A stretch of 43,365 nt of DNA from a bacterium (lineage in GTDB: Bacteria; Patescibacteriota; Gracilibacteria; Absconditabacterales; Absconditicoccaceae). The DNA lies in assembly GCA_041831495.1 (NCBI GenBank), contig JBHAST010000058.1:1-43365 (forward strand). Direction: 5' to 3'. The translations under genes and the position numbers were made by a program. The notes beneath the pieces were generated by a model. That model searched no databases, had not been told where the DNA came from, and worked only from the letters and a program-made list of their open reading frames with translations. Positions 4,501 through 35,385 of this stretch are shown piece after piece; the stretch's first letter is position 1; each line of letters begins with the position of its first letter.

Positions 4501-5945
4501 TTGAATTTAATGATGTAACTCAAAACGGAAAATACCTCTGTATCGTGGTCAAAGATAAAGTATGAAATACGCAAACAGGAGCACTTTCTAGTCCACTGAA
4601 TCTCAATATTGCACCAAGCTTCCCTCTTCATACCGCAACAATCGCTGAAAATAGTGCAATCGGAAGCTTCGTAAGCCTTCTTACTGGAAGTGATGTAAAT
4701 ACAGGTGATACCCTGACTTATACTATCATTGAAGGAAATACAGGAACAGCGTTTAGCATACAAGATAATAGACTTATAGTCAATGGTGCACTGGATTATG
4801 AAACTCTTTCAGGCTATCGTTTGATGATTAAAGTTAGTGATCAGTATGGACTCTTTTGAACGGGAGAAATGGAGATTACGCTAAACGATAAAGATGAGAT
4901 TTTGCCTACTTTAAGCACAGGAAGCTCTGTGAATTATCCGCAAGGTGCTACGATCACTCCGATTGTCTTTACAGGAAGTGATAACCAGGCGATCAGTGGG
5001 CGAAAGGTGACAGGACTTCCAGCAGGACTAACCTTTGAAGGAACGACAGGAGCTACGACAGGAAACTTGACGATCTCGGGAACCCTTTCTGCACCTACAG
5101 GAACTTATCTCATTAGTGTTGAACTTAGCGACCATGAAGGGAATGTTGCTCTTCAGACCTTTACTATTACAATCAAAACCCCTTCTCAACCTGGTTATTC
5201 ATGATGATGAGGAAAAGCACTTTCTCAGCCAACAAATCAAAATCCTGATCCTCAAACCCCAGTTCAAACCGAAAATCAGGTAAAATTCAACGATAGCGAT
5301 CTCTTCAATCCAACAATAGAAGACGGAAAGTGTTATACGAGAAGACCTCATCAGTGAATCCAGACCTCAACTACGTTCCCAACTACAGAAGAATTTAATA
5401 AAGCTCTAAGCTTTCTTTGGACTTATGAGATGACGAAATATGATAGCGTAGCTGGTTATGATCCGTATAGAAACTTGAGCAGACAGGAAGCAGCAAAAAT
5501 CTTTTCACAGTTTGCTACGAATGTCCTCTGTAGAAAACCAGATCAGAACTTAAGAGTAAACTATAGCGATACCGAAAATGCAGACCCAAGCCTGAAGCCT
5601 TATATTACGCTTGCGTATCAGCTTGGTTTGATGAAAGGAAGCGGACAAGGAGATGGGCTCTTCAGACCGTATGAAATGATCAGTAAAGCAGAGGTGAATG
5701 CCGTGTTGATTAGAATGATTTTGAAGGCTTACTTGAATGAAACATCTCTAGCAAATTGGTTTAGTAATTATAATGAAGTAGCTACGAAATTAGGAATTAT
5801 CAATCAATGAGCGGGACTACAGTCAGTTCCAAGAAATGATGTTGCATTGATGCTGTTTAGAGCCTACAAAAATCAGGTATTTGACCGACAAGAGATTGAC
5901 TATTTCAGCTATGTCTTGAAATCGAGAGATCTCTTTGTGAAGTAA
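1575..5945 (+). CDS. Giant secreted surface protein (1456 aa): DUF285/BspA-type repeats, cadherin-like repeat, Ig-like segment, SLH-like C-terminus
   Basis: Eight ORF-track pieces (1539-2117 through 5430-5810) share one frame. They are separated only by TGA: 16 in-frame TGA and no TAA/TAG by hand translation. ATG 1575 gives a signal-like N-terminus MKKLLLLLLVLTFFVGGG, and the stop is TAA 5943-5945. Motifs: repeated ..MF..A..FN.DI..W... units (DUF285-type); IAENSAIGSFV...ALDYETLSGYRLMIKVSD (cadherin-like); NLSRQEAAKIF...ISKAEVNAVLIRM (SLH-like). Confidence 0.85.
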
Positions 5946-6119: not shown

Positions 6120-8021
6120 ATGCCAACTAATGATTCTCAGCAAACTTCAGTAACTCCTACAAACCAGACCGTAGGTACTTCTCAGGATTATGAATTTGAT
6201 CTTGGGATTGCAAACCAAGAAGAACCAGTTTCTCAGGGACAAGACCTACTTCCTGCCACAGAGCCTCTTCAAGAAACACAGCCTGAAAGCACAGGAATGG
6301 CTTTTGATTTTAGTCTTGATCTTCCGGAGAACTATAGCCTAGCCAATGAAGCAAATGCTGAAACTCAAGTTCAGCCATCTGTTGATTTGGAGGATGACAA
6401 TTTGGAACAAGAAACCAGAGAAGAAACCCCTCAGGAGCTAAGCTTTGTAAGTTCAGAACCGCAAAAAAAACCAGAGGAAGCTTTGAGTTTTTCTGAATGA
6501 GAATCTTCATCGGTACTCCTTGAAGAACCTATAGAACAATCCGCAGAAGAGCCCGTGGAAGAACAAACTGAAGAAAATAATAATGAAAAAACTTTTTTTC
6601 AAGCAGAGCAAACAGGAGTTTCTGAGCAAACCTCTGTCGAACTCCTTACAGAATCTGCACCGTTCTTTACTCCTATTGAAGAAAGTGTTTCAGAAGCGAT
6701 TACCACTGAGAATGAACCTTCATCAATGCTTTCTGAAGATCCAATTTCTTGAGCAGATGCAGCAGCACCTCAGCTAGAAACCTTTCCTCAGGTTCAGCTA
6801 GCATCTCCTTCAGAACCCACTCCTGAACAAACTTCTGAGACTCCACAGGAACCTATTGAAGCAGCGAAACCAGAACTAGAACTTTCAAATTCAGCTTTAG
6901 AGGTGCCTCAGACACAGGAAGCTGGATGACCAAAGCTTCTTAACCTAGATGAAATGATTTCCCATTTTTCAGGTGGAGAACAGACCGCTTCTGCACAGGC
7001 AACCATGGATCCATTTAGTGCAATGAAAGCGACTTTAGAGGCACAACATCAGGAGAATCCTCAACCGAAAGAAAAACACGAAAGCCAAACTCTCTCAAAC
7101 CCGCTTCAACAAGCAGAAATTCAGACAGTTCAAAAAAGCCAAAATCAGACTTTAGAGTCTTGAACTGAAGAGTCAAAGGGAGCAATGGAAATGCCTGTCC
7201 AGACGTTAAATTTAGATGCAATGATCGCTTCAGAACAGCCGATTTCTTGAGGTCTTGAAGCTCCTGTCGTTCAGCAGACTCCAATGCCTGAAAGTCCTCT
7301 CAGCAATCCAACACTTAGCTATCCTCAGCTAATAACTCCGCCAAAGAAAGCGCAGGGAAAAGGAATTACTGTCCTTTTAGCTTCAATATTGGTCCTTGTG
7401 ATTGGAGGAATTGCTGTCATGAGATATCCAGATTTACTTTCTTTTTTTCAGTGAGGAAACACACCTACGCCTACGATTTCTGAGGAGCAGGAGCACTCTT
7501 CGGCTCCAGAGCAAACGCTTCTGACTGGAGAAGAAAATAATGAACTCTTGTCTGGAGCTCAGGAGGAGGATACTTTTGAGTCTTTAGAAGAGATTACCCT
7601 AGATGAGCTTTCTTCGGATGAAGAAAAAGAGATTCCACTTATTGATCTCAGCTCTGGAGAGGCAACCACAAGCAATACTTCTGGGGACACCTCTTTGCCT
7701 TCACTTCCAGAAAATCAAAATCAGAATCCTGAATCAGGAACGGTGGATCCTTTAGGAGCAGTAGAGGGATTGGTTGGTCCAATCAATAATAATGATGTGA
7801 TTAAGCAAGAAGTTCTTGAATACCAACAAAAGGGACAAAGTCTCAAAGAACAAGGAAGTGCTCAAGCAAAGAAAACGATGATGAAATATGGGCTTGCTGT
7901 AGAGAAAGAGGCAACAGACCTTTTAAATACGCTTGCAAATGGTGGAAATATTACTATATCTGAGCGGTCAGCTTTGAAGCTCAAGCTTGATAATTATTTA
8001 CAGACTGCAAATAATGCCTAA
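6120..8021 (+). CDS. Acidic, low-complexity (E/Q/P/S/T-rich) protein with a single TM helix (633 aa)
   Basis: ORF-track pieces 6120-6500, 6555-6752, 6954-7163 and 7548-8021 are in one frame joined by TGA. The gaps were hand-checked for TAA/TAG. There is one hydrophobic helix, GITVLLASILVLVIGGIAVM (about 7365-7425). The stop is TAA 8019-8021. Confidence 0.8.
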
Positions 8022-8118
8022 ATCATCAACCTTTTGAAAAAAAATATCGACCTACCAGAAGAAAAAGGAGGAGCTTCAGCCTTCCTTTTCTTTCTTAGCA
8101 AAAAAAAGAGGAAATCCC

Positions 8119-8997
8119 ATGAAAATGTCCTCCTTGTTTGCCACCTACCTTGAATATCTTGAACATACTAAAAATGTCAGCCCTAGAACGCTTTCAAACT
8201 ACAAACTCTGGATTCTGAGGGCAATTCACTTTTTCTGAGACCCAAAAATTCAGGACCTCAAACCTTTGGATGTTCTTGAACTCAGAAAGGAGCTGAGAGA
8301 GCAGGGACTTAGCAAAAAAACGATAAATTATCATATTATTGCCTTGAGATCCTTCCTTAGGTTTCTGCTCAAGAATGATATTGACTGCATGAGTCCTGAC
8401 AAATTGGAACTTGCAAAAATTCCTCAGAGAGAGGTTCATTTTTTGCAGGAAGAGGAAATTACGCAGCTTTTGCTTGCACCAAGAACACGAGGGAATGCTG
8501 AACTTCAAATCGCAAGGGATGAATTAATTCTCGCTATCCTCTATGGAACGGGGCTAAGAGTTTCAGAATTAATTTCCTTGCAAAAAAACCAAATTATCCT
8601 TTGAGAAAAACAGTTTTCTATCAGAGGAAAAGGATCAAAACTCAGATCAGTTTTTTTGACTGGTTCTGCAATGCAAAAACTCTCTGAATATCTCCAGTTA
8701 AGAAGCGACAACTATCCTCCACTTTTTATAAGCCTTGCTAAGAATAGCTATGGAAATCAGCTTTCTAGAAATTCGGTAGAAGCGCTGGTAAAAAGCTATG
8801 CAAAAAAAATCTGACTCAAAAAAAAGGTTACGCCACATACGCTTAGACACTCTTTTGCGACAATGCTACTCAAAAAGGGGGCAGATATCAGATCGGTACA
8901 AACACTCCTTGGACACGCATCCATCACAACAACCCAGATTTATACCCATATTGATGACCGTTTTCTCAAAAAAGTTCACGATCTCCTTGATGAATAA
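8119..8997 (+). CDS. xerC: Tyrosine recombinase, XerC/XerD family (292 aa)
   Basis: ATG 8119 to TAA 8995-8997 with three in-frame TGA. Catalytic signature: GLRVSEL (Arg), HTLRHSFAT (His-x-x-Arg), [15 protein letters not shown] (His, Tyr). The N-terminal SAM-like core-binding segment is [15 protein letters not shown]. Confidence 0.9.
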
Positions 8998-9289
8998 CAA
9001 GGTTGATAAAGTCGTTATGTTTTAGGCAAGCATACTCAGCATATTTTTTTCTTTTCTGCTCTTCTCAGTCATCAGTCAAAAAAAGATAAATCAGAATTAT
9101 TTGAGGATCGTAAGCAATTCAGTTAAAGTTGATAGTGACTCTTCATCATGAGAAGCGCCCTTGCATTCAGCTTTGTTTCGGTCATAGATAGTCATTTTTG
9201 TAACTATCTCCTACAAATAGGATCGTTTCGGGTTTTGACTAATCTAGAATTTTGACTATAATAGTAAGTGAATTTTATTTTAAATTTCT

Positions 9290-9925
9290 ATGAAAATGAA
9301 AAAAAACATTAAAATTAGTTTACAGATTTTTTGATGCACTGCAATTTTCGCTTTATTCTTATTTTTGTTTTTGATTTTTTCTATGAGAATTAAATCATCT
9401 AACAATAATTGGAGTGTTTTCTCTTGCAAATTAACAGATAAAGAGACTTTATTTACTCAGTGTGATGATAGAATTACCGCTTGGAAACTTTCTTGAAATA
9501 AACTTTCTTTTTATGCTCCACAGGGAATTGCATCAGTTTATATTCCCTTTACTTCTCCAAATATCAATCTAAGTATTGATGAATCTGCAAATCTAAGTTA
9601 TGATTATTGGATAGTCTATGATAATTTTTGATGGAAAGAACTTCAAAAAGTAGATGGAGAAATAGTAAATGATACTTCAGAGGATGCATTAGAAGAGTCT
9701 TTAAACAATAAAAAAAATAATAACTTCTGGTTTAGTAAAGATAAAACAGGAAAGAAAAATATTAAAATTGATGCTGGAAGACCTTTTAATACCGATGAAC
9801 TTATCGGTTATCCAAATATTGTAAAAAATACATTTCTTACAAAATGAAAGCATGCAAAGGGTGTTATTATGATGATAATGTGAGAAGCACAAGAAGTAAA
9901 TATTCAAAAAATTGAAGTATTGTAA
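9290..9925 (+). CDS. Hypothetical membrane-anchored or secreted protein (211 aa)
   Basis: Codon-by-codon translation from ATG 9290 to TAA 9923-9925 is open if five TGA are read as sense. The N-terminal hydrophobic segment is CTAIFALFLFLFLIF. This ORF is invisible in the standard-code ORF track. Confidence 0.6.
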
Positions 9926-9992
9926 TTATTAAAAATAAATCTCTAAATATCTATAATTTTTTTCTTAAAAACCCTTTGATAGTATAGATAAT

Positions 9993-10016
9993 TCCCTCAT
10001 AGTGAGGGATTTTTTC
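9993..10016 (+). terminator. Putative rho-independent terminator
   Basis: TCCCTC..GAGGGA hairpin followed by TTTTTTC, downstream of the 9290-9925 ORF. Confidence 0.5.
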
Positions 10017-10148
10017 TTTGTTCCAAAATCAATTCTCTCCTATAGATTAAAGGGTGTAATTCTTCCCTTTAATAAAAAGAGGCATTTATCCCCCTTAAAC
10101 TTCAGACTTACTTTTTGGCATTGTCTCAAAAAATAAGCAAAAGTAGAA

Positions 10149-10550
10149 TGATCTTTACTGTTTATCAAAAGGGCTTACTTCTCCAAAGTAATCCGTTCTA
10201 ATACTTCAAAGCACAGGAAGAAGCTATAAAATATGGAGCCATTCGTCCTATTTTTAGAAAAAATCCTAAATATCATGATTTTTGACCAACTTTAATGAAG
10301 GAATATCTTGCCTTGGATTTTGGAGTCAACATTCCAAAAGAGACCTTGAGGTAAATTATGATTAAAGAAGGTATTTGGGTTGCTAATCCTCAAAGAAGGA
10401 GGATTAAGTACCAAAAAAGAATAATGAGAAAAGCTCCTGTAACAAAAAAATAAAAAGAAATGAAATGAAGTTTGCCTCGCGATAGTGAGTCGAACTTCCA
10501 AAGTCATAGAGGGAACTTTGTTATTCATTCTCTCTAAAAGGTAGGAAATG
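10149..10550 (+). pseudogene. Decayed transposase remnant (rve/ISNCY-like N-terminal region)
   Basis: One frame reads MIFTVYQKGLLLQSNPF*YFKAQEEAIKYGAIRPIFRKNPKYHDFGPTLMKEYLALDFGVNIPKETLR*IMIKEGIWVANPQRRRIKYQKR. The ..YxDFGPTL..E.L....G......ETLR.WM...GLW motif of ISNCY-type transposases is present, but it is interrupted by in-frame TAA stops and lacks the DDE core. Confidence 0.55.
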
Positions 10551-10695
10551 GACTACTTTAATCAAAATCAAACAGGATTATTGTCTCTTAGATAGTCTAA
10601 AAAAACAAAAAATTTAGGATTAATGGTAAAAAATGTGTGGCTAAAATAAGGTGAAAAGGTAGTAGATAATTAGCTTTATCTACTATTTTTAATAA

Positions 10696-11025
10696 ATGCA
10701 AATAAAAAAATGTAAGAAATGCGGCGGTAGCCGCATTAAAAAAGATGGGAGAATGAGATGAAAACAAAGGTATAAATGCCAATTATGTTGATATGTGTTT
10801 CAAAACACGCGTAAAACACTCAATACTGAAAAGTTATGGAAAGAATATAGTAGTTGAAAACAGACATATTGAGAAATTGAAGCAAAATATAATCTTAGTA
10901 AAGTAACAGTTCAAAAATATTTAGACACTAAATCAATTTTCAAAATTAAGACAACTCCTCAGAAAACAGTGTTACTAATAGATACAACTTATTTTTGAAG
11001 AAAATATTGAATAATATCTGTTTAA
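10696..11025 (+). pseudogene. Truncated transposase N-terminus (zinc-ribbon plus HTH, IS1/IS1595-like), 109 aa
   Basis: The frame reads MQIKKCKKCGGSRIKKDGRMRGKQRYKCQLCGYVF (CxxC...CxxC), then an HTH-like segment. It ends at ...VLLIDTTYFGRKYGIISV*, just where a catalytic domain would start. It is far too short for a functional transposase. Confidence 0.55.
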
Positions 11026-11260
11026 TTATTTACTCTTACCTCAATGACAAGAAATTTTAAAATCCAGTATTACTTGACAAGCCCAATGATGATTAAATAG
11101 AGTAAATTTATTAAATATCAAAATTCCACTTCCTCCTCTAGAAACTCAAAAACAAATCGTTGCACAAATAGAAAAAATAGAACAAGAAATAGAAAAGTTA
11201 AAATCTGAAATAGCAGAAATCCCAAATAAGAAAGAAGAAATTTTGAGAAAATATTTATAA
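11015..11260 (+). pseudogene. C-terminal remnant of a restriction-modification specificity (HsdS-like) subunit
   Basis: The frame reads ...GQAQGGLNRVNLLNIKIPLPPLETQKQIVAQIEKIEQEIEKLKSEI...*. The I.IPLPPL.EQ..I motif followed by a coiled coil is the conserved HsdS repeat end. There is no start codon and no upstream target-recognition domain. Confidence 0.5.
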
Positions 11261-11274
11261 TTGTATATATAGTC

Positions 11275-11601
11275 ATGAAGGAAATTAAACTCAGTGAAGA
11301 AAACTACAAAGCACTATTAAAGAGCTTGGCAGTAGGGAATTTTATCTATTGAATTATGTCCGATTGTGTAAGTGATTTTTATAAAAAAGATCTACATGAT
11401 TCTGATGGGCTAATTCACCAAATCCTCAAATATTGTGATGATCCTAAGATAAAAGATGTTTGGGAATGAAAAAATATTTTTAGTGAAGAGTATAGCGAGG
11501 AAATTTTTAATGATGTGATAGAGTATGAAAATTATGTTGTAGAAGATTTAACTGGAATTAATATTGATGAATTAGACAAAGAGATTGATAAATTGAGTTA
11601 G
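11275..11601 (+). CDS. Hypothetical protein (108 aa)
   Basis: ATG 11275 to TAG 11599-11601, open with two TGA read as sense. No recognisable motif. Confidence 0.5.
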
Positions 11602-12068: not shown

Positions 12069-12650
12069 ATGATTTTTCTGATGCGAGCTTCTTTGATAGC
12101 TACTTTTCTTGAGTATAATAGTAAACTTAATCTTTCAGCGATTCGTGATGAGGAAGGGGTTCGTGTGAAGCATATTCAGGATTCTTTGCAACTTTTGGAA
12201 AGCTGACTTTTTGTTCCGTGAAGTTTTGTGATTGATATTGGGACAGGAGGAGGCTTCCCTTTGATGCCTTTGGCTCTGAGCTGTCCAGAATGTCGTTTTC
12301 TCGGTATTGATTCAGTGAGGAAAAAAACGCTTGCGGTCAATGAAATGCTAGCTCAGCTTGGCGTGAAAAATGCAGAAGTGCTTTGGACAAGGATTGAAGA
12401 ATATCAAGGAGAAAAAGCTGATCTCATCACTGCGAGAGCAGTTGCCTATAGTGATAAACTCCTCAACCGATCCTATCCTTTGCTCAAAAAAGGAGGAGCT
12501 TTTGTTTTTATGAAGCAGGAGATTGCTGAAGAAAGGGAGCTTTTGATGGAGCTCTGTAAGAAGTATCATCTAAGATTAGAACAAGAGAGAAAGTATCAGC
12601 TTTTTGATGGGGATATCTCAAGAGTAATCTATGTCTTGAGAAAAGACTAG
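12069..12650 (+). CDS. rsmG: 16S rRNA (guanine527-N7)-methyltransferase RsmG (GidB)
   Basis: HIQDSL, then VIDIGTGGGFPLMPLAL (SAM motif), then ITARAVA. ORF-track piece 12228..12650 extends upstream through two TGA. The start is uncertain: ATG 12069 was chosen, with ATG 12081 as the alternative. Confidence 0.85.
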
Positions 12651-13547: not shown

Positions 13548-15017
13548 ATGAAATTTCATGTGATTACTCTTGGTTGCCAGATGAATTATTCTGATACTGC
13601 CAGAATTACTTCTGTTTTGAAAAACTGTGGATTTTCTCGCGTAGAAACGATCGCTGAGGCAGATATTGTGATTTTTGATACCTGCTCGGTTCGCCAGAAA
13701 TCCGAAGACAAAGTGACATGAAAACTCAAAGAAATCCCGCTGACCAAAAAGGTTTGGATCACAGGGTGCATGATTCAGCACACGATGAGAAATCAGAAAG
13801 TCAGCTCGGCTAGCAAGATACCAGAACAGCTCAAAACCTGAAATTTCTCTGGAGCGATTTTGAGCAAAGAACCAAAAATCGTTGGCTTGACCTCGGAAGA
13901 AATCAATGAGCTCAAAAAAACTGAGACTTCCGATATCGTAGGGATTAACCATACTTTCAATCCGCTTTTTCATTCTCTTTCCCAGAAATGGCCGAATATT
14001 GAGCTCTTTTTCCGTATTGATGATACGGGCTTTTTGCCACTGATGCTCAAGAGATTAGGTTATGAGATTCGCTATGATCAGGAGCTCACCAACGAATATT
14101 CTACGATCATTCCCGAGGGGATCAATTCAAGTATGAATGCACACGACAAAACGGCGTATATCCCGATTTCTAGCGGTTGTAACCAGTTTTGTGCCTATTG
14201 TATCGTGCCCTATGCCCGCGGCCTGGAAAAATGGTTTCCTGTAGAGCAAATCATCAATGAAGCGAAAGTCCACCTTGCAAACGGCGTGAAAGAAATCTCG
14301 CTCCTTGGGCAGATCGTAAATAAACATCCAGATTTTTTGACCATTGTCAAAGAGCTCTTGAAGCTTGAGGGCTTGGAGCGATTGAGATATACTTCTCCGT
14401 ATCCGACCTACTATTCCGATGAGTTGCTCGCTTTGCACGAGCATGAGCCAAAGCTCTGTCCGCATATTCATATTCCGTTTCAGTCAGGTTCTACGCCGGT
14501 TTTGAAAAAGATGTTTCGTGGCTATAGTGCTGAGCAGTGTTATGCGTTCATTGACAAGATCAGGGCTTTGAAAAGACCAATCTCTATTACGACCGATATT
14601 ATCCTTGGATTCCCAGGCGAAACAGAGGAAGATTTCCAAGAAACCCTAAAACTGACAGAATACGGGCGTTTTGATATGATTTATATGGGAATCTATAGTA
14701 ATCGCCCAGGGACTTTTGCAGATAGAAAGTATCCTGATGAGATTCCTTACAAAGTGAAACACGAGAGGCGAAGTAGACTAAACGAACTCTTGCACCGCAT
14801 CTCTGAGCAAAATAATCAAGCTGAAGTCGGAAGCCAAAGAATGATGATGATCAACGAAATTTCAGAGCAGGGCGATCTGTATGGGTATACCGACAATATG
14901 AAGCAAATCACCGTTAAAGCCAACGAAAAAACAAAAAATCTAAAAATCTGAATGATGATTCCCGTTCGCATCACGAAAGGCGTGGTTTTCAAGCTAGAAG
15001 GAACTTTGCTTGACTAG
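13548..15017 (+). CDS. miaB: tRNA-2-methylthio-N6-dimethylallyladenosine synthase MiaB-like radical-SAM methylthiotransferase (489 aa)
   Basis: ATG 13548 gives MKFHVITLGCQMNYSD...DTCSVRQKSEDKV (UPF0004 domain). The radical-SAM motif is SSGCNQFCAYCIVPYARG, and a TRAM-like C-terminus follows. The gene joins the track piece 13860..14951 across TGA codons on both sides. The stop is TAG 15015-15017. Confidence 0.9.
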
Positions 15018-16637: not shown

Positions 16638-18242
16638 TTAAAAAATCTGAACCTTGATCGTAGTGGTATTGGTCATCGGATTGGAAGAAATGCGAGATTT
16701 ATAGAAGATTCCCTTGGCAAAATCCGCTTCAAAACTTCCCTGATCAAAAAGGTCTCCTGAAGTCTCTAAAATCTGCACTTGCTTTGGGAAATAAATGATT
16801 TCCTTGCTTTCTCGCCGTTTGAGGGGTCGCTGAGGATCAGGATTTTTGGGCTGTAAAGCGAGGATATGACGCTCTCTATCAGTCATTTCTACGCCATATT
16901 TCTTTTCCAGTCCTAAGATTCGGTCTTGGTAGGTCTTTGGAATATCCAGCGTATAGCGAATCTGAATCTGATAGATTCACGGCTTCAAACTATCAGTTTT
17001 CAATTTATTTTCATCGGTGGCGAGGATTACCTGCCCTTTTTCATCCAGAATTTCAATCTGTTTTTTCACAAAACCATCGGATTTATTGAACGAAGTATTG
17101 ATATTGAAAAAGTACCAAAAATCTGGGTTATACACGGTCGTTAGATCATAAGACTGCAAGAATCCCCAAAGCTCATCGGAAACATTGGAGAGATAGATAT
17201 TGATAAATCCCTTATGAAGCAGCTCTTGGATACTGTTGATCCCTGCTTTTGCGAGCGAAAGGGCATTGGTTTTCAGGTAGGCTTCTAAATCCTTGATATA
17301 AAGCTCTTTTTTATTGCTCTTGTCCTCGCCTCTGATGAGGTCAATATTCGCATTCACGAACTGCCATTCTCGCGATTTCTCACGGAAAGAAGGTAAAAGA
17401 TAGCTAATAAGCTCAGAATCTAGGAAAATCACACCTTTGATATTTTTCTGAAAAAGCTGATCCCACTTTTCAGGATTGAACATTTGGGCTTTCTTCTGAG
17501 GATCAAAATCGTGATGAAAAATCTTTTCATAAAGGGTTTTCAGATTTTTTCCATCTTTATCAGTAAAACCAAACTTATTTCCTGCGATAAATCCCGCAGA
17601 TTTTGCCCCCAAAAAGCTCCAACTTCGCTCAGGAAGCGGAACACGCGTATTAGGAGCGAGCAAATCAGGAAGATAAGAATCCACGATCTGCAAATCTACT
17701 ACATGCGCACCCGAGAAACTCACGAAAGCGAAAGAACCGAAAAATCCTCCATTAGGGCGGACTTCATTGCTATTTTGGAGCGGAACAAGATAGTTAAAAC
17801 GCTGATGCTTTCCGAGCAGCTCGAAAATTTCCTCTCTCATCGGCCACGCATCATTGAGCATCTGGAAAATCCTCTCATAATTTCCAAATCCGAGTTTTGT
17901 CAGATAAGGTCCTTGCTCTCTCGCATAGTCCCAGAGTTCAGTAAGTTCCTTTTCCTTGGTTTGGAGGACATTCGCTCCTGCCAAATAGTCCTGAATAATC
18001 TCATCAAAAGTCAAAAGCTGACGCGAGATCTCGGGATCAATCAGCCAAAAATAGAAAGCAATCTGATCAAGATCATTAAAAATATCAATTTTATTTGCTG
18101 AAAAAATCCAGCCCGTAATTCTCGCATAGAGTGCAAAAAATGAAAAACTCAGCACCAAAACCGCAATATACACAAAACGAAGCACTAAATTTGTGCCTGA
18201 AAAGCTGGATTTTCTCTGGGCAGTGATTCAGATTTTTTTCAT
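16638..18242 (-). CDS. DUF4012-type membrane-anchored protein (534 aa)
   Basis: Track pieces 16977..18185 and 16638..16886 are in frame across one TGA (16977-16979). An upstream extension through one more TGA reaches ATG 18240-18242 (MKKIGITAQRK...). The N-terminal TM is followed by the ..NSNEVRPNGGFFGSFAF.. motif typical of DUF4012, which is common in CPR genomes. Confidence 0.75.
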
Positions 18243-18472
18243 TTTTGGGTGGGGTTAAACGCCTGAAGTGTAGCATTTTTCGGAAGAAATGCAAGAGGAG
18301 GCTAATTCTCGGAATTTATTTCTTTTTAGAGAGTTTTAAGGGGCAAAGATACTTTTCTTCTTTCTTACAGGAGTTGAGGCTTGGATGACTAAATTTGAGC
18401 TTCTACTTGAACTTTCTTTTCCTTTCACTATAAGCAATCAGATTTTTATTTTTCTTTTTCTTTTATAGTGTG

Positions 18473-19219
18473 ATGAAAAAACTCGTGTTGCTCCGCCATG
18501 GAGAAAGTACTTGGAATCAAGAAAATAGATTTACTGGGCGAACGGATGTTGATCTAACAGAAAAAGGGATTCAAGAGGCGATAAAAGCTGGGAAACTTCT
18601 CAAAGAGCAGGGTTTTCAGTTCAAAAAAGCCTTTACTTCTTACCTTAAAAGAGCGATCAAAACGCTGAATATGGTGCTTGATCAGATGGATCTTGATTGG
18701 ATTCCTGTAGAAAAGAGTCGAAGACTGAATGAAAAACACTACGGAATGCTTCAAGGGCTCAATAAAGCAGAAACTGCGCAAAAATATGGAGAAGAACAGG
18801 TTCTTGTGCGAAGAAGAAGCTATGATGTTCCTCCAACTCCGCTTGAGAAGTCAGATACTCGTTCTCCTTTCCAAGATCCTCGCTATGCAGAGGTGGCAGA
18901 AGCAGATTTGCCCCTCACCGAGTCGCTTAAGGACTGTGTTGCTCGTATTTTACCCTACTGGAAAGCGCAAATTTTGCCGACTTTAGCTCAAGAGGGAGAA
19001 ATTCTGGTTGCAGCACATGGAAATAGTCTGAGAGGGATTATCAAGGTCATCAAAGGGATTTCTGATGAGGGAATCGTTAGTCTTAATCTCCCAACGGCAG
19101 TGCCTTATGTTTTTGAGTTTAATGATGAAATGGAACTTGTAAAGGATTATTTTCTTGGAGATCCAGAAGAGATCAAAAAACTGATGGATGCTGTCGCAAA
19201 TCAGGGGAAAAAGCAGTAA
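18473..19219 (+). CDS. gpmA: 2,3-bisphosphoglycerate-dependent phosphoglycerate mutase
   Basis: [32 protein letters not shown] and AAHGNSLRG give near-full-length colinearity with dPGM. The three CGA codons fall on the invariant Trp positions (see findings). Confidence 0.95.
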
Positions 19220-19666: not shown

Positions 19667-20134
19667 TTAAGATTGAAAATATAAATGTTCATTTTCTAAA
19701 AATGTATTTCGTGCAATTTTAACCGCTTGTGGAGTGATTTTTGATAGTACTGCTTCTTTTGCTTCCCAAGTGATGCTGAATTCTCATATTTGTTGCTCTA
19801 AATCAAACAGCTCAGCAAAAAAGAAATGAGATATAGAATGCAAATTAAGATCCTGCTTTTGCTCATACCTTTCAAGGTGAATAATTACCTGCAGATTTTT
19901 AATCTTCTTAATATGAAGAAATCAGACCTCTTCTTTAATCTCTCTTTCAACTGCTTGTTCTAAGCTTTCTTCTTCAATTCATCATCAAGGGACGGTAATG
20001 CCATATTTTTCTTCAATGAGGGCAAATTTTTCTTGACTTGGATGCTTTAAAAAGCAGGCAACTCTTTCTCTAGTCGTTCGTTCCTTTCAATTTTGAGGGG
20101 GCTGAAGTTCCGATACAATCCTGATCTTTTGCAT
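19667..20134 (-). CDS. Nudix hydrolase (155 aa)
   Basis: Hand translation of the minus strand gives the Nudix box VPGGGIEEEESLEQAVEREIKEEVG. The GGG is three consecutive TGA (19979-19987). This gene is absent from the standard-code ORF track. Confidence 0.85.
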
Positions 20135-20976
20135 TACAACAATTCATCAAATAAAGCTCCGACCTCACCAAAATCTCCATCGCCGATGAGAACGAGATCA
20201 AAAGCTTCTTCGTAAGTCTTAAGAAGCTCAGGAGTTTCAGAAATCAAAATTCAAATTTTAAGCACAGTTTCATGAGAATTTCCCTGTGCCATTTGAGCAT
20301 CACCAAGCCCATCACCGATCACGATAACATTTTTTCTCTTCTCAAGCTGACTTTTCAGTTCAGGGAGTTTAGAAAAAACTCATTCATCTTTATTGAGTGC
20401 ATGAATAATTTCTCCTTCAATACCTTTCGCAACTCCCTCTTCATCTCGGATAAAATGGTTGATAACATAAGAAATATTAGGAAAATCGCATTGATTATGC
20501 TGCATAAAAAGCGGAATTGCATCTCCACAACCGCTTGCAGAAAAAATCACAATCGGGATTCAGCTTTCATTCAATTTTTTGAGGCAATCCTTCACACCAT
20601 TTCTGAGCTGAAGATGCCCATTAGTTGCGATATCTTTAAGATCTGAAAGTCTAAGTTTTGAATCAATCAAAAGCTGATCATGCTTTTCTCGCCATTCCTG
20701 CATTTGAGCTTTTTTGTATTCTAAGTCTAATGCTGGATTACATTCTATAGCATGATAATGATCAAAAAGTGCATGAGCTTTTTCTGCATAATCGTCGGTC
20801 AAATGATTACCATCTCTCAAAAGTGAGATAATACTCGGTGTTTTTTTCCCATTGAAAGTACCATAAGTAAGCGTTCTATCAAAATCAACAAGAATATAGG
20901 AAAAGTTCTTCCCAGCCTGTTGAATTATTCTCTTTTTCTGGGCAAAAAGTTCTGGATTTTTGATACGAACTTGCAT
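20134..20976 (-). CDS. HAD-superfamily pyrimidine 5'-nucleotidase (UMPH-1/NT5C3-like), 280 aa
   Basis: Motifs are DFDRTLT (motif I), FSASGCGD, GDGLGDAQMA and FI.DEEGVAKGIEGEIIHALNK (compare NT5C3 [23 protein letters not shown]). Track piece 20560..20976 extends through three TGA. The stop TAA overlaps the Nudix ATG (TAATG at 20132-20136). Confidence 0.75.
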
Positions 20977-20979
20977 TGA

Positions 20980-21594
20980 TTATTGAGCCAAAGTAAAGTG
21001 AACACTTTCATTTCAAGAAACAAATTCTGAACTCATCACTCAGTCAGCCTCTTTTTTTTCAATACTCAATAGAAGCGCTTCTCCTTTGAGAAATTCATCA
21101 AATTCCTCCAAAATTGCGGTCAGATTTTCGCTTTCAGTGCTATAGGTTAGCTTTACCTTTTGCTCCACGGCAAAATCAGCATCTTTTCTCATCTGATTAA
21201 GGAAACGAGAAATCTCCCTTGCTACCCCTTCTCTCTCAAGTTCTGGAGTTAAATTCAAATCAAGTTCCGCGATCATATTTCCCTCTACTGCAATATTGTC
21301 CGCATCTAGTCCCTCATACGCCACTTCGTAATCCTCAGCACTCAAAATCCAGCTTCACCCCTGCGGAGAAAAAACTTCAATCTGTCTGTTTTCAAGTTCT
21401 CTGATATTTCCTTGCTTTCCATTAGCGATAATTTGTCCTGTATCTTTCCCAAATTTCGCAGAAAGTTGGCTTCCAAGGGGTTTAAAAACTTTTACCAAAG
21501 GTTTTTCGGAATGGAAAGATCAGATTTCTTTTACATTTACTTCTTCTTTGATGATTTCGCCATATTTTTCCAAAAGTTGTTGTTCGTTGAGCAT
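20980..21594 (-). CDS. Free-standing homologue of the C-terminal domain of type-2 isoleucyl-tRNA synthetase (204 aa)
   Basis: ...EEVNVKEI...FKPLGSQLSAKFGKDTGQI...LDLNLTPELEREGVAREISRFLNQMRKDADF.. matches the IleRS C-terminal junction/anticodon-contact region. ATG 21592-21594 is preceded in frame by TAG TAG. The upstream 164 bp is non-coding and leads to the divergent tilS gene. Confidence 0.7.
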
Positions 21595-21758
21595 TGTTCT
21601 CTACTAAAAAGGGTAAAATTAAATTTCCTAAAAAATATTAAACCTGACCTTATCATAGTAAATCCCCCTCTGAATGCAAGATTTCTTTCGGCAGATTTCC
21701 TCTTTACAATCAAGGAGGATTTGACTATACTCTCTCCATTTATCAGAAGAACGTTGTA

Positions 21759-25018: not shown

Positions 25019-26260
25019 ATGTCATCTCCTGATTTCCTCCTTTCCTCCTATGATTATCTACTTCCTGAATCTTGTATCGCTCAGGAGCCTGCTCATCCTG
25101 CTCATAATGCAAAAATGATGGTTGCAATCCCTGATAAGCAGGGGGATTTTGAACTTCAGGATCAGCATTTTCTTGATTTGGCAGCGCAGCTTGATGAGAA
25201 CTATCTGCTTTTCCTCAATAGTACCAAGGTTTTTAAGGCAAGAATTCCGCTTCACAATACCAAAATCATCAGAAAAAGTGGAAAGGAAGTGCTGCTCGCC
25301 TCAGGTGAGATTTTTATTTATCAGCTGCGTTCCGAAAGTCAGTTTGAATGCCTTGTTTCTGATAGTAAAAACTTCAAACCCTGAAGCCAGATCTTTTTTG
25401 AAGAGGGGATTGTGTTCAAGAGTCTGGCTTTCACGGAAAATGGGCTTCTGTTCGAGATTATTGATCTGAAGCGTACTGATGGAAAGGCTCAGCTTTTTGA
25501 TTTTTTAGAGAAGCGGGGAGAAATGCCTTTGCCGCCTTACATTCGCTATGAAAAAGAGAAAGAACAGCGGTATCAAACCTTTTTTGCGGAAAAGGTCGGT
25601 TCTGCTGCAGCTCCTACGGCTTCATTGCATTTTACTCCAGAGCTTGTGAGGCGTTTAGCGTCCAAAAATGTCGGATTTCAGTACTGCTGTTTGCATGTGG
25701 GGCTGGGGACGTTTAAGCCGCTTTATGAAGAAAATATTGCTGATCAGAAGCTCCATTTTGAGCCGATGCTGATTGATCCCCAGATTCGAAAGCTGATCGC
25801 TGATGCCAAGCAAGCTGGAAAAATCTTCCTGCCCGTTGGGACGACAATGATCAGGTATTTGGAGTCTTTACCGTATATTTGGAGATTCCTCAAAAAGAAA
25901 AATCTGATTTCATCTCTTGATCCTGCTACGCAAGCACGACGAAATGATCTAAGCTCCCCAATTTCCGAAGAGTTGATAGCTGAGTTTATTCCTGAAACTT
26001 ACTCAAATGTATCTGATTCTGCAATTTTAGCACCTGGGTGATACCTCATTCAAACCAGGCTTTTTATCAGACCGTGAATTCCTTTTTATTTGACTGATGA
26101 GCTGATTACAAACTTTCATCTACCAAAATCTTCGCTTATGATGCTGATTTCCGCTTTTATGGGAAGAAAAAACCTCTTGAAATGCTATCAAGAGGCGATC
26201 TGAAAAGGCTATCAGTTTTATAGTTTTTGAGATGGAATGCGAGTAAGAAGAAAGGCTTAG
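25019..26260 (+). CDS. queA: S-adenosylmethionine:tRNA ribosyltransferase-isomerase QueA (413 aa)
   Basis: [65 protein letters not shown] and YQFYSF[TGA]DGM. Track pieces 24944-25384 and 25412-26041 plus a tail are joined by TGA. Confidence 0.9.
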
Positions 26261-31669: not shown

Positions 31670-31747
31670 TGGGGCGACTGATGGGGTTCGAACCCACGAC
31701 CCTCTGGACCACAATCAGATGCTCTAACCAACTGAGCTACAGTCGCC
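31670..31747 (-). tRNA. tRNA-His (anticodon GTG) with encoded G-1 and 3' CCA
   Basis: The reverse complement is GGCGACTGTAGCTCAGTTGGTTAGAGCATCTGATTGTGGTCCAGAGGGTCGTGGGTTCGAACCCCATCAGTCGCCCCA. It folds as a cloverleaf: acceptor GCGACTG/CAGTCGC, an extra 5' G opposite C73, D arm GCTC/GAGC, anticodon loop TTGTGGT, T arm GTGGG-TTCGAAC-CCCAT. Confidence 0.9.
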
Positions 31748-31924
31748 ATTACCTCCAGCAAATACTATACAGAAAGTTTCAGGAATTTCAAGAGATTTCT
31801 CAATAAAAAAATCTGAATTTATAGAATGTCAAGTCATTTGAGAAGGAAAGGTATTTAGATTTTTCTTTTTTCTTTGATTTTGGTTATACTTAGCGTGAGG
31901 ATTTTATTTCCTATCAAAAATTCA

Positions 31925-34900
31925 ATGCCGACTTCATTAGAAACTCTAAAAACCAGAAAAGAAACGATTCGTGAGGAGCTTGATCAGCTTAAATCGTTAT
32001 CACAAAGCCAAGAAAAAGAGCAAAAACAAGAGAAAATTGCTAGTGAAATTTCAAAGCTTGATCAGGAACTTCAAGCCTACTTGGCTCAGGAAAGTGATAC
32101 AGCAAAAAAAGCAGAAGCACAGGAGATTGCAAAAGAGCTAGAAAGTTTTTCTTCTGCGTTGGAAGATTTGAAGCAGGAAGTGATAAAAAGTCAAAAACCT
32201 GAATCTGAAGCTGTGAACACTGAGGCTTCTTCTTCAGCCAAAGCGACTCCAACAACGGAAGAGAAGAAAAATTTTCTGCAAAAAGGAATGGATTGGATCA
32301 AGGGGGACGAAAATGAGACGCATCATACTGCGAAAGCAATTGGTCGTGGTGCTTTGGTCGCTTCTGGAGTGGGTATTGGAGTGTATGGGCTTGGAAAGCT
32401 TTTTGGTTGGTGGGGAAAGAAAGAAGCATCTGCTTCAAACTCAGATACTTCAAAAAAAGAAGAGAAAAAGGGTTTCCGAAATTCTGGTTTTGGAAAATTT
32501 TTGAAATGGGCTGGGATTGGTGCTGGTGTAGGAACTATTGGTTATCATCTTGGAAAAACGTTTGGTTGGTGGGGGGAAGACTGACCGTGAGAATGAGTAG
32601 ATGCTACCGATAATGCAAAAGATCAAGCAGAGAATACTGCAGAACTCAAAGAAAAAAATCCTGAAAAATTTGCCAAATATCAGGGAATGTGAGCAAATAT
32701 TGATAATCAATATCATCAAATTATGAAAAAAGAGCTAGATGCTGGTTGGTCAGGAATGAGTATTGCTGATGGCTATGTAAAATATGCAGACAAAACCAAA
32801 CTTAGCAAAGAAGATTTCCAAGCAACCGTGCCAATGTGTATTGATAATGAATTTAGCTCAGTTGAAAACTTGCTTTCTGAAGGAGGATATTATGGATATT
32901 TGAGAGAAAAAAGTCTAGGTGAGATCAAATCTTTTCTCATTGGTAAAGGGAAAGAGTGGATTGGTAAAATTATGGGACCTTATCTTGTAAATCTTACTTC
33001 TTTTATTCCTTTTATAGGAGATGATTGGTCAGAATCGTTGACAAAGTGGTTAGAGTCTGGAGAACCTGCGGAAAGAGAAGCAGAATTAAAACTTTTTTTC
33101 AGACAATATGCTAAAGTGGTAAATTACACACAAAATATTCGTGCTAGATTGATTGAAAAAATTGCAGAAGAGAAGTTTAAGAATGTAGGAGAAGATTTTT
33201 CTACTTTAGAAGATGCATTAGACGATGAAGAGCGACTCACAACACATATCTATTCAGATGCTCGTTATAAAAACTTTATGGGAGGGAAGCTTCATCAAGC
33301 AATTGATGTCATGAAAAGTCAATCGCTCTTTGATGCTCAGCTCTCTGTGAGAATGAAAAAACAGATGGATGCTGCAGATGCTCAGAGAGACACAATTTTG
33401 AAAGCTAAAGATGGCAAAGATGCTTTGCAAAGACTACAAGAAGCAAATGGAAATCTGACTCCTGAGCTCAATCGTGAGGGGATTCAGGTTTGTAAAGATA
33501 TTACTGAAGACCTCAAAGAAAACTTTGATAAAGATTGGAGTTATCTTTATTTTGGTTCAGCTCATGCAGCGATAAACTCGGATCAAAAGAATATTCAAGA
33601 GTTTCTTAAAGAATCAGGTCTGTGAGATTTAAAATCAGGAATTCTTGATTCCCTCAAACATTTTGAACAAAAATTTGCATCAGGACAGATGAATTCTGCA
33701 GATTTAGAACTTTACAAAAATCAGATCAATAGCTACTTTGCTATGAAAAAAGAGATTCTCATTGGTGCAGAATCAATTCAACAGATGAAAGCAGACAATA
33801 GCAGTATCATAGAGAGAATCCTCAATGTTGGAAGTGCAGTAGTAGGAGATGTCCTCCATCATACAGGTCAATCTGTAAAATCCTTCAAAGATGGAAATTT
33901 TATGACATGATGGCTTCAGGCAACATTGCCTTTAGTGATTTGAGGGGAAATATTTATTGGATTTGGGAAATATAAAGGAAGTAAAAAAATAGAGAACCGA
34001 GCAAGATTTATGCGTAATTCCAATCTCTTTTCTCTTGCACGAAACATCAAAGGCAAGCTAATCCGTCGTATGCCAAATAAAAATCTGAATTTTATGCCAA
34101 ATTGGCTTTTATCTTCAAGATATAATATTCCTCATGGAGATCAACTCCTTTTTCAAGATATTATTGAGGGAAAAATCAATGGAGAAAAGGCTCAAAGACT
34201 GATAAAGAAGGGGAATAGTCAGTGGAAGCATGGAGAGTGAATCAATTCACTCTCTGAATTTATACAAAAAGTAGCAGGAAAAACTGATACCGAATTGCCA
34301 GCAAAGCAACTGCAAATTCTCTTTAATAATGATGCTCAAATCTCATTTACTAAAAATAAGTCTTTAAGAGATTTGTTCTTTAGACAAGGAAAAATTGGAG
34401 CTTGGGAACAAACAAAGAGTATTTGGAACGGATATCGTCAAAAAATATATACCCCATCTGGATTTCATCATGTAGAAATTTTAGAAAAATTTATGGCTGG
34501 AGAAGCAGGTCAAACTTCACCATTTGCTAAACTTACAAAGAATCAGCAACTTTTGTTCAAAGAATTAGTTGATCAAGGAAAATTTACCAAGATTGAGGAA
34601 TTAGGTGCGATACTCAAAAATATTGATAGTATCAATTTAGAAAATGTTGAAATCTGAAAAATATCTCGTTTAGCCTCAGAATTGGGAGCTTCTTTAGATG
34701 ATTTTTTGGATCCAGCAAAACTTCAAAATAAAATCACTGCTTCTTTGCAAAAACCTCTTGATCAGACAGTTATTGCTGATGAAGCTCTAGATGCAGCTTC
34801 AGAAGCACTCCGCAAAAAGCCAATTTTCAATGATCTCTGAGAGCAAAAAAGACTTTTAGATGCAGAACTGGAAAGACTCCAACAACTTCCAAACAAATCC

Positions 34901-35356
34901 TCTGTAGATCAGGTTCGTATCAATAAACTGCAAACTCAGCTTACTGAACTAGAAAACTTTGAAAAACAGCTCTTGAACTGAGGAGAGGAGATGGTGGATC
35001 AGACCTCAGAACTTTTGACCCTTTTGAAAAAGGGAGGAAATCTGAGTGCAGCTATTGAGCAGCTTGAACTTTTGAAGAAACTTGAAGGAGAAAAGTTTGT
35101 GAGTAGTGTTATTGATCCAAAAACTGGGAAATGAATTGAAAGATCGCTTGATGAGGTGATCAAAAATCTTGATGATGTAGCGATTCGTTCTCTGAAAGGG
35201 AAAATCTCAGGAGTTAGCGATGATGCTCTAGAAAATCTAGCAAAAACTTTTGCTGATATCAAGGTTGCACAAAATGCAAAAAAACTCTTTAGCAATGCTG
35301 ATGAGTTTTTGACAGGAGTGAAAACGATGATCAAAATCTTTGCTAAAGTAACTTAA
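31925..35356 (+). CDS. Giant uncharacterised protein 'A' (1143 aa): N-terminal coiled coil, duplicated glycine-zipper TM hairpin, long helical body
   Basis: Track pieces 31874-32584, 32723-33625, 33689-33910, 34010-34240, 34295-34657 and 35156-35356 share a frame. The gaps contain only TGA (hand-checked). ATG 31925 to TAA 35354-35356. Confidence 0.8.
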
Positions 35357-35385
35357 GACTTTCTTTATTCTTGTTTCAGAGAACG

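Follow-up and report, generated by a model that had tools for sequence, protein, structure and literature searches.

The window that we analyzed is an entire contig of 43,365 nucleotides from an uncultured bacterium, and its GC content is about 38%. Homologues of its proteins carry names such as "candidate division SR1", "Candidatus Absconditabacterales" and "Candidatus Gracilibacteria", and the best of these named homologues are 42-59% identical. The gene that first drew attention is gpmA, which encodes a 2,3-bisphosphoglycerate-dependent phosphoglycerate mutase (dPGM; positions 18473-19219 on the plus strand; E = 4e-95 by phmmer against PDB) and whose 248 codons include three CGA and no TGA. 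The window also encodes a surface protein of the DUF285 family (Pfam E = 8e-38), RsmG, MiaB, a DUF4012 protein, a UMPH-1/NT5C3-like nucleotidase, QueA, and MiaA. The sole tRNA gene is for tRNA-His(GUG) (31670-31746, minus strand; ARAGORN and Rfam), and Rfam found nothing else in the window. Four CGA or CGG triplets at 145-387 are in a non-coding repeat region and should be left out of codon counts.

TGA is a glycine codon in this window. The longest open reading frame has 417 amino acids under code 11 versus 1475 amino acids if TGA is a sense codon. In alignments to related loci, the window's TGA codons pair with GGN 31 times, with TGA 21 times, and with TGG 0 times. For example, FG(TGA)DGM in QueA corresponds to FGDAM in other bacteria. 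To this extent the window resembles NCBI translation table 25, in which UGA encodes glycine and which is ascribed to SR1 and Gracilibacteria by papers that cite Campbell 2013 and Rinke 2013.

An earlier note on this DNA had proposed that CGA is probably reassigned from arginine to tryptophan, in which case every R that derives from CGA in the predicted proteins should read W. We considered four kinds of evidence: alignments to solved structures, codon pairs from alignments to 11 related loci, polymorphism among strains, and the scores of profile HMMs if these codons are translated as R or as W. All four support the claim, and we would extend it to CGG.

CGA and CGG codons in conserved proteins

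The CGA and CGG codons of conserved proteins lie on tryptophan, aromatic, or hydrophobic columns. The clearest case is gpmA, where all three CGA codons had been noticed to coincide with conserved tryptophans. In alignments to three dPGM structures, from Burkholderia and E. coli, each of them does align with tryptophan: the W of FTGW (18539-18541), of (K/H)SW(K/R)LNE (18719-18721), and of (V/Q)WRR (18809-18811; all on the plus strand). Because E. coli GpmA has 7 tryptophans in about 248 residues, simple arithmetic gives a chance of about 1e-5 that three random positions would all be on tryptophan columns. In a relative (L103) whose gpmA is 75% identical, the first two codons are also CGA and the third is TGG. 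It was also correct that the conserved arginines of gpmA avoid CGA: the arginine of RHGES is encoded by CGC, and those of NRFTG, LKRAI, and GNSLR by AGA.

If the organism used plain code 25, with CGA as an arginine codon, then such matches would be coincidental, or tryptophan would have been replaced by arginine in this lineage. Public gene predictions do give R at CGA codons, and two codons of the window, in QueA and MiaB, are on arginine columns (see below). But arginine is hard to reconcile with three of three CGA codons on invariant tryptophans of dPGM, or with the score of gpmA against the NCBIfam model PRK14115, which climbs from 388.1 to 409.0 bits (a difference of 20.9 bits) when its CGA codons are translated as W instead of R.

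In the DUF285 protein, the tryptophan that defines the repeat is encoded by TGG in one unit (FNAESLNW, 1998-2000), and codon reading confirmed that two sister units have CGA at this position (FNADID-CGA, 2283-2285, and FNTDID-CGA, 2583-2585; all on the plus strand). Reading CGA as W instead of R raises the Pfam score of this protein from 132.3 to 139.4 bits.

In other proteins, CGA falls on aromatic or hydrophobic positions, and the four assignments made from the sequence held up against structures and homologues. In MiaA, the CGA codon at 41165-41167 (minus strand) falls on the aromatic residue of (Y/F)SAA(D/E)F, which is F in 5 of 5 aligned structures; the score against the Pfam family IPPT is 257.8 bits with R and 264.6 bits with W. 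In the UMPH-1/NT5C3-like nucleotidase, which is on the minus strand, structure alignment places the CGA at 20446-20448 at the F of FMDFDE and a second CGA, at 20689-20691, opposite the Y of VEWYTK. The UMPH-1 score is 191.8 bits with R and 200.9 bits with W. In RsmG, the CGA at 12468-12470 (plus strand) corresponds to L, L, W, and W in four structures, and the score against TIGR00138 is 111.4 bits with R and 115.0 bits with W. In MiaB, the CGA at 14769-14771 (plus strand) aligns with L, and it is TGG in a relative (L092) whose MiaB is 89% identical. QueA has a similar codon at 26240-26242 (FGDGM-CGA, plus strand). Among 65 aligned QueA proteins from bacteria with the standard code, 36 have F and 26 have L at this position, and it is opposite L in a structure alignment, while four relatives have TGG.

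Across the NCBIfam models, the gain in score from changing R to W was largest for gpmA, followed by rsmG (+3.6 bits), miaA (+3.4), miaB (+1.7), and queA (+0.8). Summed over Pfam families, the gain was 25.8 bits. The profile scores of QueA and MiaB are nearly unchanged, and the score of the Radical_SAM family falls by 2.2 bits with W.

Exchange of codons between relatives and strains

CGA and CGG swap with TGG, but not with arginine codons, whether the comparison is to related genomes or to strains of one species. When we compared the window to 11 related loci, its CGA and CGG codons formed 101 pairs: 35 were with CGA or CGG, 32 with TGG, 7 with phenylalanine codons (TTY), 5 with leucine codons, 4 with tyrosine codons (TAY), and just 1 with other arginine codons (AGR or CGY). 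Conversely, 29% of the pairs that involve the window's TGG codons are with CGA or CGG, as compared to 0.9% for phenylalanine, 1.6% for tyrosine, 0.2% for leucine, and 0.3% for AGR and CGY (1 of 390 pairs). The Fisher exact test on these codon pairs gives P = 2e-34, which overstates the significance because the pairs share phylogeny and are not independent. Counting by site instead, one or more relatives have TGG at 19 of the 33 CGA or CGG sites, and an arginine codon occurs at 1 of 33.

We also compared strains of the same species (94.5-100% nucleotide identity). Among 827 codon differences, there were six changes from CGA or CGG to TGG, three from CGG to CGA, and none from CGA or CGG to AGR or CGY. 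Four of the six changes to TGG require two nucleotide substitutions. Together with the pairs between relatives, this leaves virtually no chance that CGA is simply an arginine codon.

The same data bear on whether CGA and CGG might instead encode another aromatic or hydrophobic amino acid (phenylalanine, tyrosine, or leucine). Distant homologues do have F, Y, or L at the positions in MiaA, UMPH-1, MiaB (14769), and QueA (26240). However, the positions in gpmA and DUF285 are specifically tryptophan, and within the lineage, TGG is exchanged with CGA and CGG far more often than the codons for these amino acids are. We give this alternative next to no weight.

A few sites illustrate the exchange, and they include CGG codons. 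In the DUF4012 protein (minus strand), the CGA at 17625-17627 is TGG in three relatives and in the same-species strain L009, and the CGG at 16815-16817 is TGG in two relatives and in strain L001 and CGC in one relative. In QueA (plus strand), the CGG at 25514-25516 is in a hydrophobic or aromatic column: the outgroups have L, I, or V, four relatives have TAT, and strain L001, which is of the same species, has TGG. A lineage-specific insert in QueA has an adjacent pair of CGA codons (25937-25942, plus strand). At the first of these, relatives have TGG, CGG, or TTT, and strain L001 has TGG. The second (25940) is CGA in 7 of 8 lineage genomes and TGG in none (an alternative pairwise alignment puts CAT in one), so it is uninformative by itself. 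CGG codons at 22674 and 26421 also pair with TGG in relatives. Although there are just about nine coding CGG codons in the window, a smaller data set than for CGA, CGG is reassigned like CGA. We rejected a reassignment of CGG only, since CGA is the main codon on tryptophan columns.

The outgroups for QueA were 80 distant proteins from bacteria with the standard code (at most 37% identity), from a scan of a genome collection with a QueA alignment. A scan of the collection with TilS found zero relatives.

Codon usage fits with this reading. Per 10,000 codons, across all genes of this one contig, there are 185 AGA, which is the dominant arginine codon, and 79.7 TGG. Counting CGA, CGG, and TGG together implies that about 1.4% of residues are tryptophan, which is normal for a bacterial proteome.

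Overall, judging from these sequence comparisons, we estimate a probability of about 93% that this bacterium, probably of the SR1/Absconditabacteria lineage, uses UGA for glycine, both CGA and CGG for tryptophan, and only AGA, AGG, CGU, and CGC for arginine.

A candidate tRNA and two arginine columns

How might CGA be read as tryptophan? ARAGORN and Rfam found no CGA-decoding tRNA in the 43,365 nucleotides of the window. However, a related metagenomic contig in which TGA is a sense codon (L099) encodes a tRNA(UCG) with A1-U72, G73, U20 (that is, no A20), and G37. Its gene is upstream of, and adjoins, the orthologue of the window's DUF4012 gene. The corresponding region of the window (18255-18472) has no tRNA, and three closer relatives, one of them the complete genome RAAC1_SR1_1, lack tRNA(UCG) at their DUF4012 loci. 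Around gpmA and QueA, we fetched 17 loci from the lineage and scanned ten, which had tRNA-His only. The supplement of a 2026 NAR paper had no tRNA sequences from Absconditabacterales. We also considered the anticodon arm of the tRNA from L099 (CCGGU/ACCGG) as a mark of tryptophan origin, but a scan of viral contigs matched 43 of them, mostly phage tRNA arrays that include tRNAs labelled Arg(UCG) by ARAGORN. The arm is therefore not diagnostic, and we dropped it.

The literature on Absconditabacteria reports tRNA(UCG), tRNA(CCG), tRNA(GCG), and tRNA(CCA), while tRNA(ACG) is absent (PMC8629427). From this and the one related contig, we propose that a tRNA(UCG) with the identity elements of tRNA-Trp (A1-U72, G73, and no A20) would be charged by TrpRS. 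It would decode CGA, and also CGG via wobble, and tRNA(CCG) might contribute as well; CGU and CGC would be decoded by tRNA-Arg(GCG).

Two codons of the window are on arginine columns. One is a CGG in QueA (25568-25570, plus strand), in the column of the conserved arginine of ERYQTVY, which is R in 68 of the 80 outgroup proteins and in 3 structures. In eight lineage genomes, this codon is CGG once, CGA five times, and TGG twice; it is CGA in strain L001. The other is a CGA in MiaB (GLE-CGA-LRY; 14379-14381, plus strand). The earlier note had already cautioned that this position is arginine in some MiaB proteins, and it is indeed R in MiaB from B. uniformis, but it is W in RimO from T. maritima and TGG in L092. 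Because both positions are arginine in bacteria with the standard code and TGG in relatives, they look like ancestral arginines that were converted by the reassignment.

These positions could also indicate that CGA and CGG are ambiguous, that is, read as both tryptophan and arginine by competing tRNAs or by a single tRNA that both synthetases charge, in a code that is mid-switch. Besides the retention of CGA or CGG on both ancestral arginine columns, the tRNA(UCG) of L099 is suggestive, since it joins an acceptor stem of the tryptophan type to an anticodon loop with G36-G37. Such a loop is typical of tRNAs for codons that start with C. Shulgina and Eddy state that experiments are needed to exclude ambiguity (PMC8629427). 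On the other hand, close relatives have TGG at both columns, so tryptophan is tolerated there. Despite the dominance of AGA, the QueA column shows none of AGA, AGG, CGT, and CGC in any lineage genome. Invariant catalytic arginines are never encoded by CGA or CGG; in QueA, the conserved arginines R75, R279, and R383 are encoded by AGA, AGG, or CGC. The near absence of pairs between CGA or CGG and other arginine codons also argues against ambiguity, which we consider very improbable.

If CGA and CGG encode tryptophan alone, then low GC may have left these codons scarce, which would have made the switch cheap, and the few arginine codons that were left over, such as those at 25568 in QueA and 14379 in MiaB, would have turned into tryptophan codons. 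A bolder version is that the reassignment occurred before CGA and CGG were lost, so that functionally conserved arginine codons became tryptophan codons and have been retained since, with some drifting to TGG. We think this is unlikely. Candidates for converted arginines are the arginine of ERYQTVY in QueA, the first arginine of R-I-R-F in MiaB, and perhaps that of QRAVTPGQ in MnmA from L099. A census of converted arginines across SR1 genomes would be a direct test of codon capture against an ambiguous intermediate, and it could expose residual dual decoding as arginine and tryptophan.

Comparison to known genetic codes

The earlier note had pointed to a computational prediction, by Shulgina and Eddy in 2021, of CGA and CGG as tryptophan codons in a clade of Absconditabacterales. 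This attribution was accurate: the prediction was made for Absconditabacteria (SR1) with Codetta (eLife 2021; PMC8629427), and the reassignment was detected again by KACI (bioRxiv 10.64898/2026.04.02.715157). So the reassignment is correctly identified, but it is not new. In the literature, the code of this clade is described as computational only; more broadly, sense-codon reassignments in bacteria are rare and are known from computational predictions only.

We found no difference in kind between the window's code and that of Absconditabacteria. The same two codons have the same tryptophan meaning, UGA encodes glycine, and AGA is the main arginine codon. The names of the homologues and the tRNA(UCG) of L099, with G73 and without A20, also match, and the GC content of the window (38%) compares to 0.29-0.38 in that group (PMC8629427). 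The window has 46.7 CGA and 10.5 CGG per 10,000 codons, while all but one of the listed Absconditabacteria species have under 37 and under 7, but this comparison is loose because it sets the genes of one contig against Pfam-aligned columns. The window provides independent confirmation of the code, at the level of codons and of strains, it uses the reassigned codons fairly heavily, and it shows sites of apparent conversion from ancestral arginine to tryptophan.

Other codes are less similar. In Anaerococcus and in the RFN20 Bacilli, an arginine CGN codon was also reassigned to tryptophan at low GC, but only CGG changed: CGA remains an arginine codon that is decoded by tRNA-Arg(ICG), and tRNA(UCG) is absent (PMC8629427). 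In the window, CGA is the main reassigned codon. [quoted passage not shown]

Standard annotation pipelines mistranslate this organism, with TGA as stop or tryptophan and CGA and CGG as arginine. Under table 25, CGA and CGG remain arginine codons, so about 67 positions in the window that it translates as R are most likely W (leaving aside the non-coding triplets), or about 1 wrong residue in 175. Both errors are visible in public protein sets from this lineage, where genes are broken up, glycines appear as "W", and tryptophans appear as "R".

Probable tryptophan at conserved CGA sites

The earlier note proposed that CGA has probably been reassigned from arginine to tryptophan, and all of its coordinates proved correct. 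In gpmA (18473-19219), the CGA codons at 18539, 18719, and 18809 align with tryptophan in the dPGM structures from Burkholderia and E. coli (phmmer E about 1e-95 to 1e-90), where the contexts are FTGW, SW(R/K)LNE, and (V/Q)WRR. The conserved arginines of GpmA do without CGA, as the note had it: RHGES uses CGC, and NRFTG, LKRAI, and GNSLR use AGA. In the DUF285/cadherin/SLH surface protein (1521-5945; Pfam DUF285, E = 8e-38), the repeat position FN.(D/E)(I/S)..W is encoded by TGG at 1998-2000 and by CGA at 2283-2285 and 2583-2585. Other CGA codons align mostly with aromatic or hydrophobic residues: in solved structures, these are F (5/5) for MiaA 41165-41167 (- strand), F for 20446-20448 (-) and Y for 20689-20691 (-) in UMPH-1, and L, L, W, and W for RsmG 12468-12470, and the residue is L for MiaB 14769-14771.

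Following the principle of Codetta, we computed profile scores for each protein twice, once with its CGA and CGG codons translated as R and once with them as W. With W, scores for NCBIfam models rose from 388.1 to 409.0 bits for gpmA (PRK14115, +20.9), from 266.6 to 270.0 for miaA (+3.4), from 111.4 to 115.0 for rsmG (+3.6), from 318.4 to 320.1 for miaB (+1.7), and from 318.0 to 318.8 for queA (PRK00147, +0.8). Among Pfam families, UMPH-1 rose from 191.8 to 200.9 (+9.1), DUF285 from 132.3 to 139.4 (+7.1), IPPT from 257.8 to 264.6 (+6.8), and GidB from 110.2 to 114.7 (+4.5), and Radical_SAM fell from 94.6 to 92.4 (-2.2); the net change over all main Pfam families was +25.8 bits. Per 10,000 codons, the window has 46.7 CGA, 10.5 CGG, 79.7 TGG, 185 AGA, and 91.8 TGA, and tryptophan makes up about 1.4% of codons if CGA and CGG are counted with it.

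Codon exchanges among strains and relatives

Same-species strains that are 0-5.5% different from the window showed 827 codon differences. Six are swaps between CGA or CGG and TGG (at 17627, 17465 [in two strains], 16817, 21351, 25514, and 25937), three replace CGG by CGA, and none is a change between CGA or CGG and AGA, AGG, CGT, or CGC. In four of these six swaps, two nucleotides must change, which is hard to explain unless CGA and CGG are synonymous with TGG.

We also aligned the window's genes to DNA around the homologues of QueA and the DUF4012 protein from ten related genomes (38-75% protein identity), and to one further related contig from a tRNA scan (L099), all translated with TGA as glycine. 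The window's CGA and CGG codons gave 101 aligned pairs: 35 with CGA or CGG, 32 with TGG, 7 with phenylalanine codons, 4 with tyrosine codons, and just 1 with AGA, AGG, CGT, or CGC. The window's TGG codons gave 92 pairs, of which 27 (29%) were with CGA or CGG, 36 with TGG, and 0 with those four arginine codons. When the window has one of the four (390 pairs), the relative has one of them in 176 pairs and CGA or CGG in 1; for the window's Phe, Tyr, and Leu codons, CGA or CGG accounts for 0.9%, 1.6%, and 0.2% of pairs. Because these pairs share ancestry, the Fisher exact test on them (P = 2e-34) overstates the significance. Counted site by site, the data agree with the pair counts on the tryptophan reading: at least one relative has TGG at 19 of the 33 CGA/CGG sites, and an arginine codon is aligned at 1 site. 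In the QueA columns where at least one of eight lineage genomes has CGA or CGG, these codons occur mainly alongside TGG, TTT/TTC, or TAT/TAC; three of the columns also hold Leu, Ile, Lys, or Ala codons, and AGA, AGG, CGT, and CGC are absent from all of them. The window's TGA codons align with GGN or TGA in the relatives and never with TGG, so by these alignments TGA is glycine, as in table 25, and not tryptophan.

Overall, the profile scores, the strain polymorphism, and the codon pairs in relatives support the note's interpretation, and we put the probability that CGA and CGG mean tryptophan in this organism at about 93%.

Two sites lie on columns that are arginine in standard-code bacteria. 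The CGG at 25568-25570 in QueA falls on the R of ERYQTVY, which is R in 68 of 80 standard-code QueA proteins and in 3/3 solved structures. The CGA at 14379-14381 in MiaB, which the note rightly gave as a caveat, aligns with R in MiaB of B. uniformis and with W in RimO. Within the lineage, the QueA column is CGA in five genomes, TGG in two, and CGG otherwise, and none of the eight genomes has AGA, CGT, or CGC there; at the MiaB site, a relative with 89% identity has TGG. The truly invariant arginines of QueA, R75 and R279 (R in 79/80 and 80/80 outgroups), use AGA or AGG. On the simplest reading, both sites still used CGA or CGG for arginine when the code switched, so that they turned into tryptophan and this was tolerated; such sites bear on how the reassignment came about. 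Alternatively, CGA and CGG may be decoded ambiguously, though nothing in the data requires this. An MnmA-like ORF on L099 (1100-2212) has CGA in the motif A-CGA-AVSPGQ. Other bacteria presumably have QRAVTPGQ there, with a conserved arginine; if so, it is possibly a third converted site.

A candidate decoding tRNA and the known code

No CGA-decoding tRNA was found in the window, where tRNA-His(GUG) (31670-31746) is the sole RNA gene detected. A search of the JGI metagenome collection used a tRNA-shaped pattern that pairs a Trp-type acceptor stem (AGGGG...CCCCUG) with the anticodon UCG. One of the three matches was L099, a 14-kb contig with 35% GC. TGA is clearly a sense codon there: the longest ORF grows from 206 aa under code 11 to 655 aa with TGA as sense. 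The tRNA(UCG), at 7771-7843 (+), is AGGGGGTTGGTGTAATCGGTTAACACACCGGTCTTCGGAACCGGCATTACGGGTTCAAATCCTGTACCCCCTG. It lies directly upstream of a DUF4012 orthologue (~7900-9498, 38% identity to the window's), a linkage that neither the window nor three closer relatives share. The gene at 10328-11497, 2.5 kb from the tRNA, has a KMSKS motif and we take it to be TrpRS-like. By cloverleaf reading, the tRNA has A1-U72, G73, U and not A at position 20, and G37 beside G36, features that match Shulgina and Eddy's criteria for a Trp-type tRNA(UCG).

We considered the anticodon arm of this tRNA as a mark of tryptophan origin and dropped it, as IMG/VR has the same arm in tRNAs called Arg(UCG) by ARAGORN, most of them in phage tRNA arrays. 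Many of the IMG/VR viral contigs (L105-L147) carry such arrays, with up to 29 tRNAs. Among them are tRNA-Arg(UCG) genes that share the arm CCGGU-CUUCGRA-ACCGG with the L099 tRNA, so it is widespread and uninformative about origin.

The code itself is already known. UGA=Gly with CGA/CGG=Trp was predicted for Absconditabacteria, which have tRNA(UCG), tRNA(CCG), tRNA(GCG), and tRNA(CCA), lack tRNA(ACG), and have a GC content of 0.29-0.38 (Shulgina and Eddy, eLife 2021, PMC8629427); the note gave this prediction accurately. CPR bacteria are without tRNA-Arg(ACG), their tRNA-Arg(GCG) reads CGU and CGC, and they carry tRNA(UCG) and tRNA(CCG) for CGA and CGG (PMC8629427). By analogy with this literature, the window's organism would lack tRNA-Arg(ACG), use tRNA-Arg(GCG) for CGU and CGC, and read CGA and CGG with tRNA(UCG) and tRNA(CCG), and low GC would have left CGA and CGG rare before the switch. 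A 2026 preprint on 2.7 million NCBI assemblies (bioRxiv 10.64898/2026.04.02.715157) re-detected the code among known or suspected reassignments, a 2026 NAR paper treats it as established, and the gTranslate preprint still terms prokaryotic sense-codon reassignments "computationally predicted."

The defining features of the Absconditabacteria code that are testable in the window are seen there, and the Trp-type tRNA(UCG) is seen only in the relative L099. Unlike Anaerococcus and RFN20, where CGG alone is reassigned, the window has CGA reassigned too, and it differs from plain table 25, where CGA and CGG are arginine. The phenomenon is rare and predicted, and specialists would expect it in any SR1 contig. 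Our analysis adds evidence that CGG behaves as CGA does, strain-level and codon-level confirmation in a lineage that the 2021 tables do not name, and the two apparent converted-arginine sites.

Annotation and gene content

Public translations for this lineage (P0001-P0269) mix three codes. TGA is read as a stop in some entries, which breaks proteins of the window's species into pieces of 82, 146, and 402 aa, and as Trp (F-TGA-D-G-M in the gene shows up, for instance, in FYSFWDWM) or Gly in others; CGA and CGG are read as R in all of them. Without the underlying DNA, each W or R in these entries is ambiguous.

The window is a complete contig of 43,365 nt and has a GC content of about 38%. Its ORFs are fragmented under the standard bacterial code (longest 417 aa) and reach 1475 aa with TGA as sense. 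Besides the surface protein and GpmA, it encodes a XerC/D-type recombinase, RsmG, MiaB, the DUF4012 protein, RecX, a Nudix protein, the UMPH-1/NT5C3-like nucleotidase, TilS, FtsE, QueA, MiaA, a sigma-70 factor, a small kinase-like protein, and several large lineage-specific proteins. Among named homologues, the closest belong to candidate division SR1, Candidatus Absconditabacterales, or Gracilibacteria, and a human oral metagenome contains a QueA with 68% identity. The gpmA region recurs almost unchanged (94.5-100% nucleotide identity) in several NCBI MAGs (GCA_0418...) and Logan assemblies. GpmA's full-length match to proteobacterial enzymes is much closer than the matches of the window's other housekeeping proteins to PDB homologues; gpmA may be a horizontally acquired gene. 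In another relative (L103), a gpmA with 75% identity lies near DUF4012.

Gene content differs among the same-species strains. In two of them (L001 and L002), the nucleotidase and DUF5915 genes are separated by a 247-aa Metallophos_2 gene that is absent from the window (junction 20979/20980). The 155-aa Nudix gene (19667-20137) is present in the window and L002 and absent from L001. The DUF5915 gene (20980-21600, -), kept in all strains, encodes a stand-alone IleRS C-terminal domain of 204 aa, with the sequence EGVAREISRF and without the synthetase core.

The contig's lowest GC (~30%) is at 9926-11600, where reading TGA as sense still leaves no convincing long ORF and Rfam gave no match. At the start of the contig, a 21-nt unit (AATTAAGAATTAACAATGAAC) is repeated in tandem about six times (1-126); the two copies of a 61-nt direct repeat that follow (178-238 and 292-352) are 89% identical and lie 114 nt apart. 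These repeats fill the first ~320 nt of ORF 112-1425, so its 5' part is probably non-coding; the four CGA/CGG triplets in this repeat region are not codons. Two neighbouring giant ORFs at 31859-39465 (+), of 1160 and 1364 aa with a 10-nt overlap, contain many TGG codons (16 and 15) along with 10 CGA codons.
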